From the NCBI GenBank assembly GCA_014905635.1, contig CM026547.1:3100001-3164000 (forward strand): a stretch of 64,000 nucleotides of DNA, given 5' to 3'. This document shows, piece after piece, positions 18,578-60,374 of the stretch. Below the pieces are notes generated by a model that saw only the letters and a list, made by a program, of their open reading frames with translations, ran no database searches and had not been told where the DNA came from. Made by a program: the position numbers and the translations under genes. The stretch is from Scenedesmus sp. PABB004. Taxonomy: Eukaryota. How positions within the stretch are numbered: position 1 is the stretch's first letter; every line of letters starts with the position of its first letter.

Positions 18578-20825
18578 CTAGCTCGCCGGCGGCAGCAGGT
18601 GCTGGGCGAGGTCGAACACCTCGCCAACGTTGCCCGCCTCCTCGCGCAGCGCGGCGCGCGCCGCCGCGAGCTGGCGCAGCAGCACCTCCAGCGAGCTCTG
18701 CGCCTCGGCGGGCGCGCGGGGCGGGGCGGCCGCCGAGTGAGGCGCCGGCGGCGCGGCGGTGGCACCGGCCGCTGCGCGCGGCGCCGCGCGGCGCGGCGCG
18801 CGCACCTGCGGCGGGCCGCCGCCGCCCCCGCCCGCGCCGTCGCCGTCGCCGCCAGCCGCGCCCGCTCCGGCCGCCGCGTCGGCGCCACCGCCGCTGGCGC
18901 GCGAGGCCGCGAGGATGGCGCCGTTGACCACGTCGGCCACGTGCTCGCGCTGGCCGAGGTGCAGCAGGTGCGCGAGCGGCGAGGCCTCGGGGCGCTCGTA
19001 CGCAATGAGCGCGACCACCTCGCGCAGCGCCGCGTCGCGCTGGCCCCCGCCCGGCTGCAGCCCCGCCAGCACCGTCTGCGCAAACTGCAGCGCCTCGCCG
19101 ACGCACGACTGCCTGCGCGGCGGGGCGCGCGGGCTGCGTGTCGCGGCGGCGGGGCGCGCGGCCGGGCGGCGGGGCGCGCGGCCGGGCGGCGCGCCGCGCC
19201 CCCGTGCTGCCGCGCTGCCGTCCGGGTCGTCTCACCGGATGAGCTCGATGAACTGCTGGCAGCTGAGGCAGAACTGGACCTCCTCGCTCACGGCGTGGCC
19301 CTGCAGCACCGCGGGGCACTGCGCCTGCAGCAGCTCCATCGCCGCCACCAGCTGCCCCGCCATGATCGCGCCGCGCACGGCTGCGCGCGTCGCGAGCGTG
19401 GCCGCCATGGCCTCCTCCTCGCCCTCGCTGCGCGGCGCGCGGCGCGCGGCGCGCGGCGGCGGCGTGTGAGCGCGGCGGCGGCGGGCGAGCGCGTGCGGGC
19501 GCGGGCGCGCGCGGGCGGGCGCGGGCGCGCGGGGGCCGCCGCACCACATGGGCTGCTCGATGCCCTCCGCGCCCGCCGCGCCGTCAAACGCCGCGAGCGT
19601 CGCGCCGTAGCCATAGTGCAGCAGGTAGCGCCGCACCACGCTGTGCGCCGTCCCGGCCGACACGTCCACGCTACGCGCGGCGCCGCGCGGGGTGGCCGCG
19701 TCGGCGCGCGGCGCGGGCGGCGCGGGCGGCGCGGGCGGCGCCGCTCCCGCCGGTGCCGCCGCTGCGCCGGCGCCCCCACGCGGGCGCACCGCTGCACGTC
19801 GGCGGCCTCCTGCTCCTGCTCCTCGATGAGCAGCGCCTCGAGGTCAAACTTGAACGGCGACGCGCCAAAGTTGACCGTCACCGCCTCGTTCTTGCTGCGC
19901 GGCGCGCACGGCGCGTGGGCACGGCGGGTCGGGCGGGCGGGGCGGGTCGGGCGCACGACGCAGGGCGGGAGAGGCGGGGCGGGGCGCGGCAGCGCTGGCT
20001 GCGCCGCCGCGCCTGTGCAGGCCGACGGTGGGGAACAGCTGCGTCGCCTGCACGTTGCGGAACGCCGTCTTGAGGCGTTGTCCGTTCTTGCTGCGCGCGC
20101 GGGGGCGGCGCAGCGGGGGGCGTCGGCGTCGGCGGCGGCGGCGGTGGCGCGGCGCGGCCGCGGGCGCCGCCGGCCGCCACCCCACGCGCCCGGGCGCCCG
20201 TGCTCACGTGAAGAAGACCTCCTGGCGGCCGAGGTGCAGGCACGCGCCGACGGTGTCGCCCGCGCCAAAGCGCGGCCCGTAGTCCTCGCCCTTGCCCGAC
20301 GCAGCGTACTTCTGGCCGTCGTCGCCGTGGTAGCCGTAGCTGCCCACCTCCCACCTGCCGCGGCACGGGACGGCGCGGCGCGCGCTCGGCCGGCCGGCCG
20401 GCGGGCAGCGCGCGCCAGGCCGCGCCGCCGCCGCCCGCGCAGCCGCGCGCCGCGCACCCGGGCTGGCGCGTGAGCTTGAAGGTGCGGTCGCTGAAGCCGA
20501 CGCCGACGCGGCCGTGCTCGCCCGCGTCGGTCACGGTGACCTCAAAGTAGTAGAGGCGCTGCGCGGCCGGCGCGGGCGCGTTGGCCTGCGCGGCGCCGAC
20601 GTCGTTCGCGTGCCGCCCCTCGCCCACGTAGCGCAGGCTGAGCTTGTCCTTGCCGACCTCCAGCCCGGGGCCGTGGTTGCTGGTGTTGAGCGCGCTCGGC
20701 GGCGGCTCCGGCGCGAGCGGCGCGCCCGCGGCAGCGGCGGCGCCGGGCGCGACCGGCGCCGCGCCGCCGCCCGGCGCCGTGCCGCCGCGGCCCCCGGCCA
20801 GGCCGCCCGTTGACCGGCGCGCCAG
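18578..20825 (-). CDS. RanBPM: RanBPM/RanBP9-10 (Gid1) homologue: SPRY-LisH-CTLH-CRA, CTLH E3 complex scaffold
   Basis: SPRY motifs YYFEVTV, GYHGDDG, FFTKNG, LFPTVGL, VNFGASPFKFD; LisH VVRRYLLHYGY; CTLH FCLSCQQFIELIR; CRA ALIAYERPEASP...QREHVADVVNGAIL. No in-frame ATG, so the start is placed at the CTG at 20825 (inference). Confidence 0.9.
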
Positions 20826-21055
20826 CGTGCCCACGCCGCCCCGGGCGGCTGCTGAAGGGCTGCGCGCGCTAGAGGAGCGGCGGGCGCGCAGCAGCAGCGG
20901 CGGCGGCGCGTTCGCGGCGCCGGGGGCCGGCTGCGTGGGTGAGCGGCGTGCGAGCGGCGTCCGGCGCTCGCGTGTCGTCGTCGATTCAGAGTACCGCCCC
21001 CCGGGCGGGCGAGCACGCGCGTCGGGGCTGCTCGGCGGTTCAGGGCGGCACGCCG

Positions 21056-21107
21056 CGACCGTCTGCACAATCCGGTGCGCGCTTGGGCACCAGATCGTGC
21101 ACGGTCG
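21056..21107. repeat. Imperfect ~21-bp-arm inverted repeat (hairpin)
   Basis: cgaccgt(ct)gcacaatccggtgc - gcgcttgg - gcaccagatcgtgcacggtcg; one 2-nt bulge and 2 mismatches. Confidence 0.7.
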
Positions 21108-21400
21108 GAGGCACGCAGCGGTCACCCACGCCCGGCGAGAGCCTCCCGCGATGCACAGCCGGTCGATCGGGCGACTGGGGCGCGCGCGCTGCCGGCAGCC
21201 CAAGCCGGCGCGCGCCGCGATGGGCAGCCTGTGAGGCGCGTGTGTGGTGCGTGCGTCGCGGCCGCCCGGATCGCGCACTCCGCGACGGGCGCGTTCCGGA
21301 AGATTTCATGCTGCCCCGCCCCGCGCCGCCCCGCCCCGCAACGCCCCGCCCCGCCCCGCCGTCAGGCGCCACGGCCTGAGCTGAGGGCGTGCTGGGCGCC

Positions 21401-22293
21401 ATGGAGCCGGAGCCGCCGCCACCGCCGCCGCCGATCGGCGGCGGGCAGCAGGAGGCGCAGCAGCGCGCTGGCGCGCCGGCTCAGGCCGATCCCGCGCACC
21501 CCGTGGCGCCCGCCGGCCTTTTCGCGCTGCCGGTGCTGAACTGGGGCGCGCACCGCGACGCGCGCGGGATTGAGCGGCACCGGCTTTGGCAGGAGGGGCG
21601 GCCGGGGCGGTACGACCGCCGCCCGCCCGGCGGCGGCGACTGCGTGCATGCCTGCCTGAACCGCGTGCCTGCATACTCGGGCACGAGCGTCGCCGCGCCG
21701 CCGCGTGGCGCAACGGCCGGGTGCATCATGTGCTCAACAATGCATTCGCATATAGCTTGCTTGCGTGCCGTGCAGAGTGTGCGTGGCGGCTGCGGAAGCA
21801 CGGGCTGAAGCAGCGCGCGCTGCATGCCGTGATTCAGTTGACTGCATACGGCCGGGTCTTTGTGCGCGGGCGCGTCCGGCCGCACGCGCGCCTGCCCGCC
21901 GACCTGCCCGCGGTGGTGCTGGGCATCGGGGACGCCAGCCTGGGCATGGGGGGCTGCATCTCGGGGCCGGGGCCGCCGCGGCAGGCGCTGCTGGCGCTGC
22001 TGCGCACGTACTACGCGCGCCGGCGCGTCGCCGCGGTGCTCATGGACGAGCACCGGACCAGCATCACCTGCTCTGTTTGCGGGGCGCGCATGGAGAAGCT
22101 GCGGGGCATTTACGGTTTGCTGCAGTGCCCCGGGTGCACGGTCGTCGCGCCGCGCGACGACAACGCGGCGCGCAACATCTGCGCGCTCACGCTGCACGAG
22201 TTGCTGCGCGGCGGCCGCGGCACGGCGGGCGGCGCGCGCCTCGCCGGCGCGTTCCGGCAGGCGGCCGCCGCCGCGGTGGACCCCCCGGCGTGA
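21401..22293 (+). mobile_element. Fanzor/TnpB-like RuvC + zinc-finger nuclease gene, short (~295 aa), one frameshift at ~21695-21705
   Basis: Frame 2: WRLRKHGLKQRAL, VLGIGDASLG, GPPRQALL, LMDEHRTSITCSVCG (RuvC-II E, CxxC), LQCPGC (CxxC), PRDDNAARNI (RuvC-III D). Frame 1 starts at ATG 21401 in gccATGg context. Intronless, unlike its neighbours. Confidence 0.85.
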
Positions 22294-22530
22294 GCGGCGT
22301 GTGCGGTGCGCTGCGCTCTCCGTCCTGGGCAGGACGTTAAAAGGCCTCTTGCTGTTGTGTGTTGCCAGGTTAGGTCAGCGGGTGCGCGTGTGCTTCTCGC
22401 ATTGTCACCCGTGGGGGGGACCCCCTCGCGGGGGCACCGACCTGCAGGCCGGTCCCAAACCGTTATGCCTCGCGCCGCAGTGGCCTGTTTCAGGCGGCCG
22501 GCGATCAGAGGATGCCCATGGTCGGTGTTG
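22294..22530 (+). ncRNA. Candidate Fanzor omega-RNA scaffold / element right end
   Basis: Lower-GC segment directly after the nuclease stop. Hairpins: cgtcct/aggacg (22321-22336), cgggtg/cacccg (22379-22411), gggacc/ggtccc (22417-22456), cctc-cgccg-gcctg/caggc-cggcg-gagg (~22468-22511). Long-range pairing caccgacc (22435-22442)/ggtcggtg (22520-22527). Confidence 0.5.
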
Positions 22531-22854
22531 GCGGCGGCGGCGCGCGCGCGCGCCGGTGGCAGCGCCGCGCACGCGCGCCCGCGGCGTCGGGGCGCCCCCC
22601 GGGGCGCCCCGGCAGCCCCCATCCCCCCAGCCGCCGGTGTTGAGACCACCGGCCGGCGCTCCCACGGCGGTAGCGAGGCCGGGGAGCACGCCCACCCGGC
22701 GAGACAGCACCTCGCAACACCCCAGACCGCGCCCGCCTGCGCCCGCCGCGCACGAGCCCGCCAGTACACTCCCACCCGCACCACCTCCGTCGCCGCTGCC
22801 GCCCTGCGCCGCGCCCCCGCCCGCCCCCGCGCCCGCCCCCGGCCACCAGGCACG

Positions 22855-57919: not shown

Positions 57920-60374
57920 ATGGTGCGGAGCGGCCTGCCGCGGGCCCTGGCGGCCCTGGCGCGCGCAGGTGAGGGCGGATCAGGGGGACTGTGGCCTGAT
58001 CCGTCGCGCCCGGTCGCTGGGGAGCCGCCGCCGCGCCGCCAGGGAGCGCGCAGCAGCCGGCACCGGCAACGGCAGCGCCGCCGCTCACGCCGCGCCCCCG
58101 CCCCGCGCCGCCGCCGCCGCCGCAGGCCTCGCCCGCCAGACCGAGGTCAGCAGGTGCGCGCCGCAGCGCAGACGCGGCGCAGCGGGCAGCGGGCGGCGCG
58201 CCAGCGGGCGCAACCGACGCGGCGCAGCCGCCGGGCGGCGAGCAGCGGCGCCGCTCACGCCCGCCCCTGCCGCCCGCCGCCCCGCTCCCTTCTGCACACA
58301 GCAATGCGGCCGCGCCGGCGCTCAGGGCGCTGGGCCTGTCCGCCCAGCGGGTGAGCAGCAGCGGCGGCTGGCGGGGGGCGGGGCGGGCGCGGCGCGCGGC
58401 GGCGGGGCGCGGGCAGCGGGCGCCGCAGGCGCGCCGCGCGCGCGCGGCCGCGCCGCGCTCACCCGCTGCGCACGCGCGCCGCGCGCAGGGCTTTGCGGCG
58501 GAGAGCAAGCCGCTGGACGAGATGCGGCGCCCCAAGTTCAGCAGCAAGTACCTGATCCAGCACATCAGCCAGAAGCTCATCCCCGCGGTCAAGGAGTGGG
58601 AGAAGAGCTACCAGCCGCCCATCATCCACCTGGGGCGCGTGCTCAGCGTCGGCGACGGCATCGCGCGCGTGTACGGCCTGCGCAGCGTGCAGGCGGGCGA
58701 GCTGGTGTGCTTTGACAGCGGCGTGAAGGGCATGGCGCTCAACCTGCAGCACGACCACGTCGGCGTCGTCATCTTTGGCCAGGACCACGCCATCCACCAG
58801 GGCGACCTCGTCTACCGCACGGGCCAGATCGTCAACGTGCCCGTCGGCCCCGGCAACCTCGGCCGCGTGCTCGACGCGCTCGGCCAGCCCATCGACGGCG
58901 CCGGCCCGCTCACCGGCGTGCGCAGCAGCCTGGTGGAGGTCAAGGCGCCCGGCATCGTGGCGCGCCAGTCCGTGCGCGAGCCGCTCTACACCGGTGAGCC
59001 AAGCGCGCGCGCCGCGACGGCGGCCGCGTCAGCGGCGGCAGCCGCGGCCTGGCAGCAGCGGCTGCAGCGGACGCGGCCGGCAGCGGCGGCTGCGGCGGCT
59101 GCGGCAGCGGCAGCGGCAGCGGCAGCGGCGCGGCAGCGGCTGCGGCGCGGCCGCGGCAGCGGCGGCAGCGGCAGCAGCGGCAGCGGTGGCAGCGGCGGCA
59201 GCCGCAGCGGCAGCTTAGCAGCGCGCACGCCGCTGCAGCAACGGCGCTGACGCCCCGCCCCGCCCTGCGCCCCGCCGCACGCCGCGCGCCGCCAGGCGTC
59301 AAGGCGGTGGACAGCCTGGTGCCGATCGGGCGCGGGCAGCGCGAGCTGATCATCGGCGACCGGCAGACGGGCAAGACCGCGATCGCGGTGGACTGCATCC
59401 TGCACCAGAAGGCGTGCAACGCGGCGGTGCCCAAGAACCGGCGCGTGTACTGCGTGTACGTCGCGATCGGGCAGAAGCGCTCGACCGTGGCGCAGCTGGT
59501 CAAGCTGTTCACGCAGACGGGCGCGATCAAGAACACGATCATCGTCTCCGCGACCGCCAGCGACGCGGCGCCGCTGCAGTTCCTCGCGCCCTACAGCGCG
59601 TGCGCGATGGCCGAGTACTTCCGCGACACCGGCAAGCACGCGCTCATCATCTACGACGACCTCTCCAAGCAGAGCGTCGCGTACCGCCAGATGAGCCTGC
59701 TGCTGCGCCGCCCGCCCGGGCGCGAGGCCTTCCCCGGCGACGTCTTCTACCTCCACTCGCGCCTGCTCGAGCGCGCGGCCAAGATGTCGGCCGACCTCGG
59801 CGGCGGCAGCCTGACCGCGTTCCCCGTGATCGAGACGCAGGCGGGCGACGTGAGCGCGTACATCGCGACCAACGTCATCTCCATCACCGACGGCCAGATC
59901 TTCCTGGAGACCGAGCTCTTCTACAAGGGCATCCGCCCCGCGCTCAACGTCGGCCTCTCCGTGTCGCGCGTCGGCTCGGCGGCGCAGTTCCCCGCGATGA
60001 AGCAGGTCGCGGGCACGCTGAAGCTCGAGCTCGCGCAGTACCGCGAGGTCGCCGCGTTTGCGCAGTTTGGCAGCGACCTCGACGCGGCGACGCAGTACGT
60101 GCTGGAGCGCGGCGCGCGGCTGACGGAGATCCTGAAGCAGCGCCAGTTCAACCCGATGCCCATTGAGCAGCAGGTCGTCGTCGTGTACGCCGCGACCAAG
60201 GGCTACCTCGACAAGGTCGCGACCAGCGACATCACCGCCGCCGAGACGGCCATCCTGAAGCACGTCGACCCCGCGGTCTACAAGGTGCTGCGCCACAACC
60301 ACAAGATCAGCCCCGAGCTCAACGCGCACCTGCACGCCCAGATCACGGCCGTGCCGCTGCCGGTCAAGGCCTGA
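57920..60374 (+). CDS. ATP1: Mitochondrial F1-ATP synthase alpha subunit, nucleus-encoded with presequence
   Basis: [16 protein letters not shown], Walker [31 protein letters not shown]. Spliceosomal introns, presequence [15 protein letters not shown] and chlorophycean N-terminal extension. Confidence 0.97.

Follow-up and report, generated by a model that had tools for sequence, protein, structure and literature searches.

The window, a stretch of 64,000 nt from Scenedesmus sp. PABB004, includes one copy of a mobile element family with about 30 copies in a single 40-Mb genome (Table 1). The copy follows a RanBP9/10-like gene in head-to-head arrangement and precedes a pyrophosphatase gene (PF00719), and it consists of a left 0.6 kb joined to a right 1.15 kb (21547–22691). 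Long copies of the family are about 8–9 kb (full copies 8.5 kb), and the window copy is an internal-deletion derivative, from which the SAE2 domain, an OTU-like segment, the N-terminal part of the Fanzor nuclease and RuvC-I have been deleted.

Three copies start near 20963 and others at 20976–21101. Three loci start at 21012–21015, inside the left GAGCACGC repeat, and four about 35–50 nt further out. A second left-end type, in which the GGCGGTTCAGGGCGG motif is inverted, occurs in L058, L063 and L069, and in L069 a 2-kb right part follows it directly. The insertion in the window may have removed or replaced the start of the RanBP9/10-like gene (20700–21402, minus strand). From its SPRY exon to the element the minus strand has no ATG, and the only minus-strand ATGs in 20691–21560, at 21309 and 21402, both fall within the element left part.

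Table 1. Features of the window copy and its right flank, in window coordinates.
Feature	Position	Strand	Basis
Element left part, predicted ATG at 21402	20963–21551	+	80–96% match to 5′ ends of full-length copies
GAGCACGC, direct repeat of right terminus, Replitron-like, may be chance	21011–21018	+	Sequence match
5-bp microhomology junction of ~6.8-kb internal deletion	21547–21551	+	Comparison with full-length copies
Fanzor1 C-terminal remnant: rearranged glutamate motif DEHRTS, C4 zinc finger, RD motif	21547–22293	+	Motifs
Conserved non-coding right end, putative omega-RNA scaffold region	22294–22691	+	Copy alignments, fold z
220-nt RNA contig identical to window allele	22347–22566		Metatranscriptome
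Predicted long-range helix, G run 22414–22420 with 22622–22628, crossing the originally proposed boundary	22414–22628	+	
Helix CACCGACC/GGTCGGTG, predicted nested, closing a multiloop	22435–22527	+	Partition-function folds
GC-rich hairpins, originally proposed as spacer, element-internal	22531–22612	+	Homology, fold
Hairpin with one two-sided change, U-A to C-G in L029	22633–22653	+	Copy alignment
Terminal hairpin, ending 4 nt short of terminus	22658–22687	+	94–98% of cells paired; changes one-sided only
Right terminus GAGCACGC	22684–22691	+	27/27 scored copies; boundary independently by BLAST
Flank, putative guide, ~160 nt upstream of the inferred start of the host pyrophosphatase gene	22692–22711	+	

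Nuclease and SAE2/CtIP domain

The ORF preceding the non-coding end (21586–22293, stop codon 22291–22293) encodes a TnpB/Cas12f zinc-finger domain (Pfam PF07282, E 2.5e-10). Owing to the internal deletion, the window copy lacks RuvC-I with its aspartate. In the family, the RuvC-I motif was found in 14 of the 32 loci scanned, and D, E and D lie in one stop-free frame in 10 of these 14. The Fanzor1 pattern D-X(125-275)-[TS][TS]-C4 zinc finger-RD was found in 10 of the 14 copies as GIDPG ... DEHRTS ... CxxC/CxxC ... RDDN. RuvC pN/pS values of 0.40 and 0.49 between subfamilies (12 synonymous and 13–16 non-synonymous changes) point to purifying selection. Inactivation of the nuclease, for which the original prediction supposed there could be selection, applies to the window copy; a family-wide dead nuclease is ruled out by the ten in-frame triads and the RuvC pN/pS.

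A model of the C-terminal 510 aa of an intact sibling (pLDDT 59) gave SpuFz1 as the top three Foldseek matches (E 1.5e-5 to 2.9e-5). With VIA-align, the same model gave Z of 10–11 for Cas12f, CasPhi, Fanzor2 and TnpB and 8.7 for GtFz1; the margins by which the fold would assign the protein to Fanzor1 rather than Fanzor2 are modest. Among named protein records, the nearest (94% identity) belongs to Scenedesmus sp. PABB004 itself, and the Atlas gave no usable match for the Fanzor N-terminal stretch. One public annotation (P0031) fuses a Fanzor copy and a host mannose-1-phosphate guanylyltransferase gene into a 3,130-aa protein, probably a gene-model artefact.

Unusually for a Fanzor element, the N-terminal part of the element encodes a captured SAE2/CtIP C-terminal domain (PF08573, E 9e-7, 30.4 bits against a cut-off of 19.8) with CxxC, RHR and TPxGFW motifs. 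The C-terminal part of CtIP is reported to carry sites required for resection (PMC10706839, in part). The domain was found at seven long element copies and at one other locus, taken to be the single host CtIP gene, with which the element domain shares 60% amino-acid identity. Its motifs are intact in six of the seven copies and frameshifted in L060. The ATG, the SAE2 domain and the OTU-like segment share a frame in L066, as do the OTU-like segment and RuvC in L067, and L064 has one stop-free frame from SAE2 to RuvC that contains an out-of-frame stretch. None of the copies has an undisturbed frame over the full length, and a single protein of ~2,700 aa carrying both SAE2 and Fanzor is therefore only inferred.

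The OTU-like segment, which resembles an OTU protease in its motifs, had no Pfam match, and its model (pLDDT 42) had no fold match. A weak lead is an Atlas row (0.90) in which 19% of the members have PF02338. Between L066 and L067 the segment has 53% amino-acid identity and a pN/pS of 1.44, and the SAE2 and RuvC parts of the same pair are 95–96% identical; the segment may have changed fast or been swapped.

No report of a Fanzor–CtIP fusion was found in the literature searched, which omits most subscription journals. The closest likeness is to the engineered Cas9–CtIP fusion, which also combines an RNA-guided nuclease with part of the resection factor CtIP. That fusion is artificial and its activity is reported to lie in CtIP residues 1–296 (PMC5859065, in part), whereas the element has a C-terminal Sae2-like domain. 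If confirmed as a natural counterpart of such constructs, the fusion would be of interest to genome engineers.

Right terminus and folding of the non-coding end

The original prediction placed the end of a guide RNA scaffold at 22528–22530, with an abrupt switch to host sequence at 22531 and a GCG/GC repeat as the flank-derived spacer. The segment 22294–22550 has 40 matches in the 40-Mb genome, of which ~30 are substantial. By BLAST, homology runs through 22530 and ends at 22691–22703 in 27 of the 29 other loci and at 22611 and 22639 in the remaining two; none of the 29 stops at 22530. A query of 22600–22695 found 30 loci. Relative to the window copy, 20 aligned copies have a mean identity of 0.95 over 22491–22530 and 0.86, 0.90, 0.94 and 0.92 in the four following blocks up to 22691. 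The GC repeat at 22531 is thus conserved element-internal sequence rather than flank. In L023, an internal gap from 22540 to 22602 removes most of the GC-rich hairpins and the terminus is kept.

The element right end is 22691, 160 bases beyond the earlier proposal. The 27 copies scored over the terminus were picked by the terminal motif itself, with one duplicate excluded. Just past GAGCACGC these copies have C (24 copies), C (19) and A (17), followed by background, and the 3′ flanks of most copy pairs diverge within 3 nt of the terminus. With the element ending here, a flank-derived guide would begin at 22692–22695, which excludes a scaffold end at 22528–22530. The CCA at 22692–22694 may be part of the scaffold rather than of the guide; inclusion of flanking bases in the scaffold is described for other systems (PMC10711439, in part). 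The spacer had also been expected to match many sites in its own genome. The true flank 16-mer has a single exact match, itself, and 53 matches with up to two mismatches, compared with 60 for the reversed control, and with this uniqueness the self-targeting argument falls.

Several features of the original description were confirmed. GC content is lower in 22294–22530 (67%) than in the upstream ORF (74%), in 22531–22691 (87%) and in the window (79%), and the predicted fold shows at least four hairpins. CACCGACC (22435–22442) and GGTCGGTG (22520–22527) are exact reverse complements, and GGGACC (22417–22422) and GGTCCC (22451–22456) flank the former. A pair of this kind is within chance expectation: 49% of 2000 dinucleotide shuffles of the segment contain an 8-nt reverse complement with 30 nt or more between the two parts. 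The folding of 22294–22550 is unremarkable (z −0.77; 48 of 200 shuffles equally good). The whole right end, 22294–22691, gave a z of −3.2, and the intact copy L004 gave −2.6 and, for its last 324 nt, −3.9 (60 shuffles each). Folding is strongest at 22500–22720.

The segments above had been combined into a pseudoknot next to the guide, as in TnpB and Fanzor2 RNAs. The pseudoknot described for the latter pairs about five guide-adjacent bases with an apical loop (PMC10711439, in part), whereas the CACCGACC/GGTCGGTG helix is predicted to be nested and ends 164 nt before the terminus. In partition-function folds, which are not pseudoknot-aware, the outer GGGACC/GGTCCC stem has a pairing probability of 0.00 in both the window copy and L004. 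The CACCGACC/GGTCGGTG helix has 0.99–1.0 in L004 and 0.04–0.08 in the window copy when this is folded to 22691. In the 18 other copies covering the site, a neighbouring hairpin is completed by 7 nt that are missing from the window copy. Across 21 aligned copies, the inner helix is 98% paired and the outer stem 74–86%, with no compensatory change in the 14 pairs of the pseudoknot model. On these grounds the pseudoknot was rejected. The SpuFz1 omega-RNA is described as lacking one (PMC10432273), and it was apparently lost in Fanzor1 (PMC10711439), as far as the accessible parts of both sources go.

A nested model of 55 pairs is 95% paired, and two-sided changes in two of the pairs, a number reached by 27 of 500 shuffles, are suggestive only, the copies being too alike. 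Several pairs are preserved through wobble-type changes, and the RNAalifold consensus departs from the nested single-copy model in the 5′ half. The long-range helix has a probability of 0.82–0.99 in L004 and is unproven, since only 86% of its cells are paired and it shows no covariation.

Rfam gave no family or ribozyme for the right end, with a single chance-level match (E 3.3). Among outside relatives sought for covariation, a word-index protein search gave nothing, and a representative search yielded 28 proteins, all distant (best 37%) and unusable for this purpose. Metagenome loci match at 30–48% over short stretches, and a 17-nt core motif is absent from the viral contigs searched. Within the genome, the diverged matches L071 and L072 are degraded and without the right end. 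L072 (G000:C8, about 723,800–724,200) is a distant TnpB/Fanzor-like remnant, 33% identical, in an intron of what we take to be a cullin gene.

Propagation of the family

Left ends are scattered between 145 nt and more than 9 kb from the terminus, giving variable 5′ truncation. Target duplications of 16–21 nt were found in 5 of 29 copies, representing four independent events, in a scan of 225–1500 nt of upstream sequence; the maximum in 806 mismatched pairs was 12. Right-hand duplicates begin 2–6 nt past GAGCACGC, and the intervening bases are missing at the left duplicate, which indicates that these bases move together with the element. In 14 of 377 pairs drawn from 28 flanks, the initial 6–14 nt are shared in a nested pattern, and further out no shared run exceeds 5. 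Copies would carry flank bases of their parent, and a hierarchy of inherited guide-side bases can be traced across the family. We suggest that copies arise by one-ended copying that would start 0–14 nt past the right end, keep introns and stop at variable points.

Inherited flank bases would give mismatches between the guide start and the empty site in copies with duplications. By eye, the three targets without a slippage tail do mismatch the first guide bases, and the four reconstructed targets have no common TAM-like motif. The mismatches sit badly with simple homing; if the CCA belongs to the scaffold, part of this puzzle of empty-site recognition would be resolved.

No autonomous partner was found. 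Helitron_like_N (PF14214) and Replitron_HUH (PF21859) had no match in the genome, in searches with a silent positive control that may miss intron-split genes. Two long element frames have no Rep HUH transposase by Pfam, PIF1 is present at one locus, and all 22 exact matches of the terminal motif are family members. Upstream frames of the diverged copy L115 look host-gene-like by eye. Copying may quite possibly, though short of probably, be started by a diverged or lost HUH transposase of the Replitron/Helitron2 type acting in trans; a starter other than HUH, break repair or a LINE is decidedly unlikely.

The family works like the Chlamydomonas Fanzor1 elements. CRe-1/2/3 of C. reinhardtii (CrFNuc, Fanzor1 in non-autonomous Helitron2) are likewise green-algal and intron-bearing, with intact 3′ ends, 5′ truncations, internal deletions, variable target duplications and extra 5′ sequence (PMC3627910, in part). 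Unlike them, the Scenedesmus family has no T-rich target, convincing asymmetric inverted repeats or detected RepHel partner, where Helitron2 has such repeats of 8–15 bp with the 5′ copy no more than 2 bp from the end. Between the terminal 125-nt stretches, inverted matches of at least 9 nt are absent and those of 7–8 nt are internal. Duplications flank 5 of 29 copies compared with a reported 10–70% of CRe loci, and the protein, an inferred ~2,700 aa with an SAE2 domain, compares with 830 aa for CRe-1 in the same partial account. CrFNuc is reported to show no cleavage in vitro (PMC10530073, in part), which counts against the guide-RNA explanation preferred below. Replitron-1/N1 of C. reinhardtii (PMC10288648, in part) shares a right-end hairpin, parent-derived fuzzy right ends, variable duplications and a short direct repeat near both ends, the last of which may be chance here. 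It differs in that the Scenedesmus family carries a Fanzor, has no Rep in the element or detected in the genome, has scattered rather than fixed left ends and shows no evident RG target.

Spread without any transposase is possible, if somewhat unlikely. A break, made by Fanzor or otherwise, would be resected with the aid of the fused SAE2/CtIP domain, and its 3′ end would anneal by 3–6 nt of microhomology past the donor right end and copy until falling off. The failure of the partner searches and the single PIF1 locus fit such a process, as do the SAE2 domain of the long copies, mostly motif-intact, and overlaps of 6, 5 and 3 nt between the target duplicate and the flank of the best-matching sibling in L013, L006 and L027. 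Against it, the two HUH searches are those with the silent control, and the four reconstructed targets share no seed match by eye. The 5′ overhangs reported for SpuFz1 (PMC10432273, in part) have the wrong geometry for flank priming, and Replitron-1, with a known Rep, yields the same fuzzy ends and duplications. Moreover, Cas9–CtIP activity comes from the N-terminal fragment, not the C-terminal domain, and no single copy has a clean frame from ATG to RuvC. That a giant Fanzor1–SAE2 fusion steers break repair into right-end copying, with daughters inheriting the first 2–14 bases of the parent guide, we consider unlikely. If true, the transposase-free route would put to the test the idea, already proposed, that the unusual duplications seen with rolling-circle elements of algae are caused by Fanzors.

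It is improbable that a resident LINE reverse-transcribes unspliced or omega-RNA transcripts at nicked targets. The 5′ truncation, variable duplications, junction microhomology and filler are consistent with this, the genome has 34 RVT_1 matches, some near-identical, and several copies begin within the non-coding end. However, the two introns predicted in the element from GT-AG ends and frame are retained, intron 1 in 8/8 copies and the other in 7/7, the terminus has no poly(A) tail, and 15 RT loci (~3.7 kb each) showed no similarity to the element ends, although RT 3′ tails may lie outside the sequence compared. Many near-identical loci for LINE-type reverse transcriptases (L139–L153) are often near contig ends.

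Some loci show further rearrangement. L016 and L022 have their left flank and internal deletions in common and different right flanks, and one seems to have been copied from the other with upstream host sequence included. Inverted duplications of right-end pieces, in the non-coding end of L022 and in L116 (G000:C30, about 58,400–60,000), suggest template switching while copying. At L015 (G000:C1, near 2,175,900), the left and right flanks are from different genes, a possible rearrangement at insertion; the right flank is presumably a coding fragment for ribosomal protein S18.

Candidate guide RNA

The right end is likely to give rise to an omega-RNA, as judged from the fold z of 22294–22691 and from the RNA contigs of one study. 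The segment 22294–22550 covers two-thirds, from the 5′ side, of the non-coding right end belonging to the Fanzor1-carrying element. The RNA would start ~40–100 nt past the stop codon (about 22335–22390), run through 22691, fold into nested helices without a pseudoknot and bind Fanzor, and the next 15–20 nt of host flank would serve as guide. The window copy, having lost RuvC-I, could contribute nothing but RNA, to be loaded by Fanzor that intact copies encode, in the manner of SpuFz1 ghost loci. Taken as a whole, with the RNA end at 22691, a flank guide, use in trans and one-ended copying, this is probably the best explanation. From the original prediction, the assignment to a non-coding TnpB/Fanzor-type 3′ end that is probably part of an omega-RNA survives with a corrected end; the specific claims for end, pseudoknot and guide mostly fail.

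RNA contigs cover 22254–22566 in all three freshwater metatranscriptome runs, which are shallow and from one study. Besides the contig identical to the window allele, the others are sibling-type alleles, and three contigs begin at 22347. The longest stop at 22552 and 22566 and none gets to 22691; contigs give neither RNA ends nor strand, and the uncovered part past them is 87% GC and repetitive. No cover was found over 22582–22691 or the flanking host genes, and the coding part had only short divergent pieces; with three shallow runs of one study, absent cover is no evidence of silence. The cover is a weak hint that RNA from the non-coding end is abundant.

The proposed RNA resembles those of other systems. 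The accessible parts of 10.1101/2023.06.13.544871, PMC10530073 and PMC10432273 describe Fanzor RNAs that run over the element end. According to the first, the Chlamydomonas Fanzor1 RNA starts ~100 bp past the last exon and crosses the element end, lying in the 3′ UTR in CRe-1/2/3; the right-end RNA proposed here would correspond to it. TnpB and Fanzor2 omega-RNAs also derive from the right end and take their guide from the flank. The family further shares with SpuFz1 and its ghost loci in Spizellomyces punctatus (PMC10432273, in part) the Fanzor1 fold, a right-end omega-RNA (here putative) that lacks a pseudoknot and takes its guide from the flank, copies reduced to RNA production that could supply the protein in trans, and an element without internal transposase. 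Unlike Spu-1, with 30-nt terminal inverted repeats, the family has no inverted repeats and a 400-nt right end. The length of the proposed RNA, 340–400 nt against 88–90 nt for SpuFz1 in that account, speaks against the preferred explanation.

It is very unlikely that the RNA is processed to about 22347–22550 and uses a GC repeat encoded in the element as an invariant guide, the final 140 nt being only a DNA copying signal. The starts and stops of the contigs lean this way, and with it toward the original boundary; in addition, the strongest match in the diverged copy L030 ends near 22550, and L023 has lost most of 22540–22602. However, RNA ends cannot be read from contigs, those Fanzor RNAs that have been characterised extend over the element end, and the pseudoknot is unsupported. 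A guide made of a common GC repeat should also do harm, and still most RuvC-I-bearing copies keep the triad. Equally doubtful is that the right end is an mRNA 3′ UTR with DNA hairpins for the copying machinery and holds no functional guide RNA: hairpins are general at HUH transposon ends (PMC10288648, in part), folding is strongest toward the terminus and Rfam has no family for it, but RuvC is under purifying selection, wobble-type changes keep several pairs, and, as a weak point, the contigs lie on the non-coding rather than the coding part of the stretch searched.

On the preferred reading, a guide-RNA end is expected biology for a Fanzor1 element, of which only the boundary needed correction. 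The family itself is young, with ~30 copies and intact catalytic residues, and its predicted protein also includes a DNA-resection domain of host origin. The role of Fanzors for their elements in eukaryotes is described as unsettled (PMC10432273; PMC10288648, both in part), and the family makes this question testable in a culturable alga.

The 3′ flanks of L002, L006, L011, L018, L025 and the window copy apparently lie 110–200 nt upstream of the start of a co-directional host gene, and promoter sequence may be a frequent source of guides. The first flanks are often below the window average in GC.
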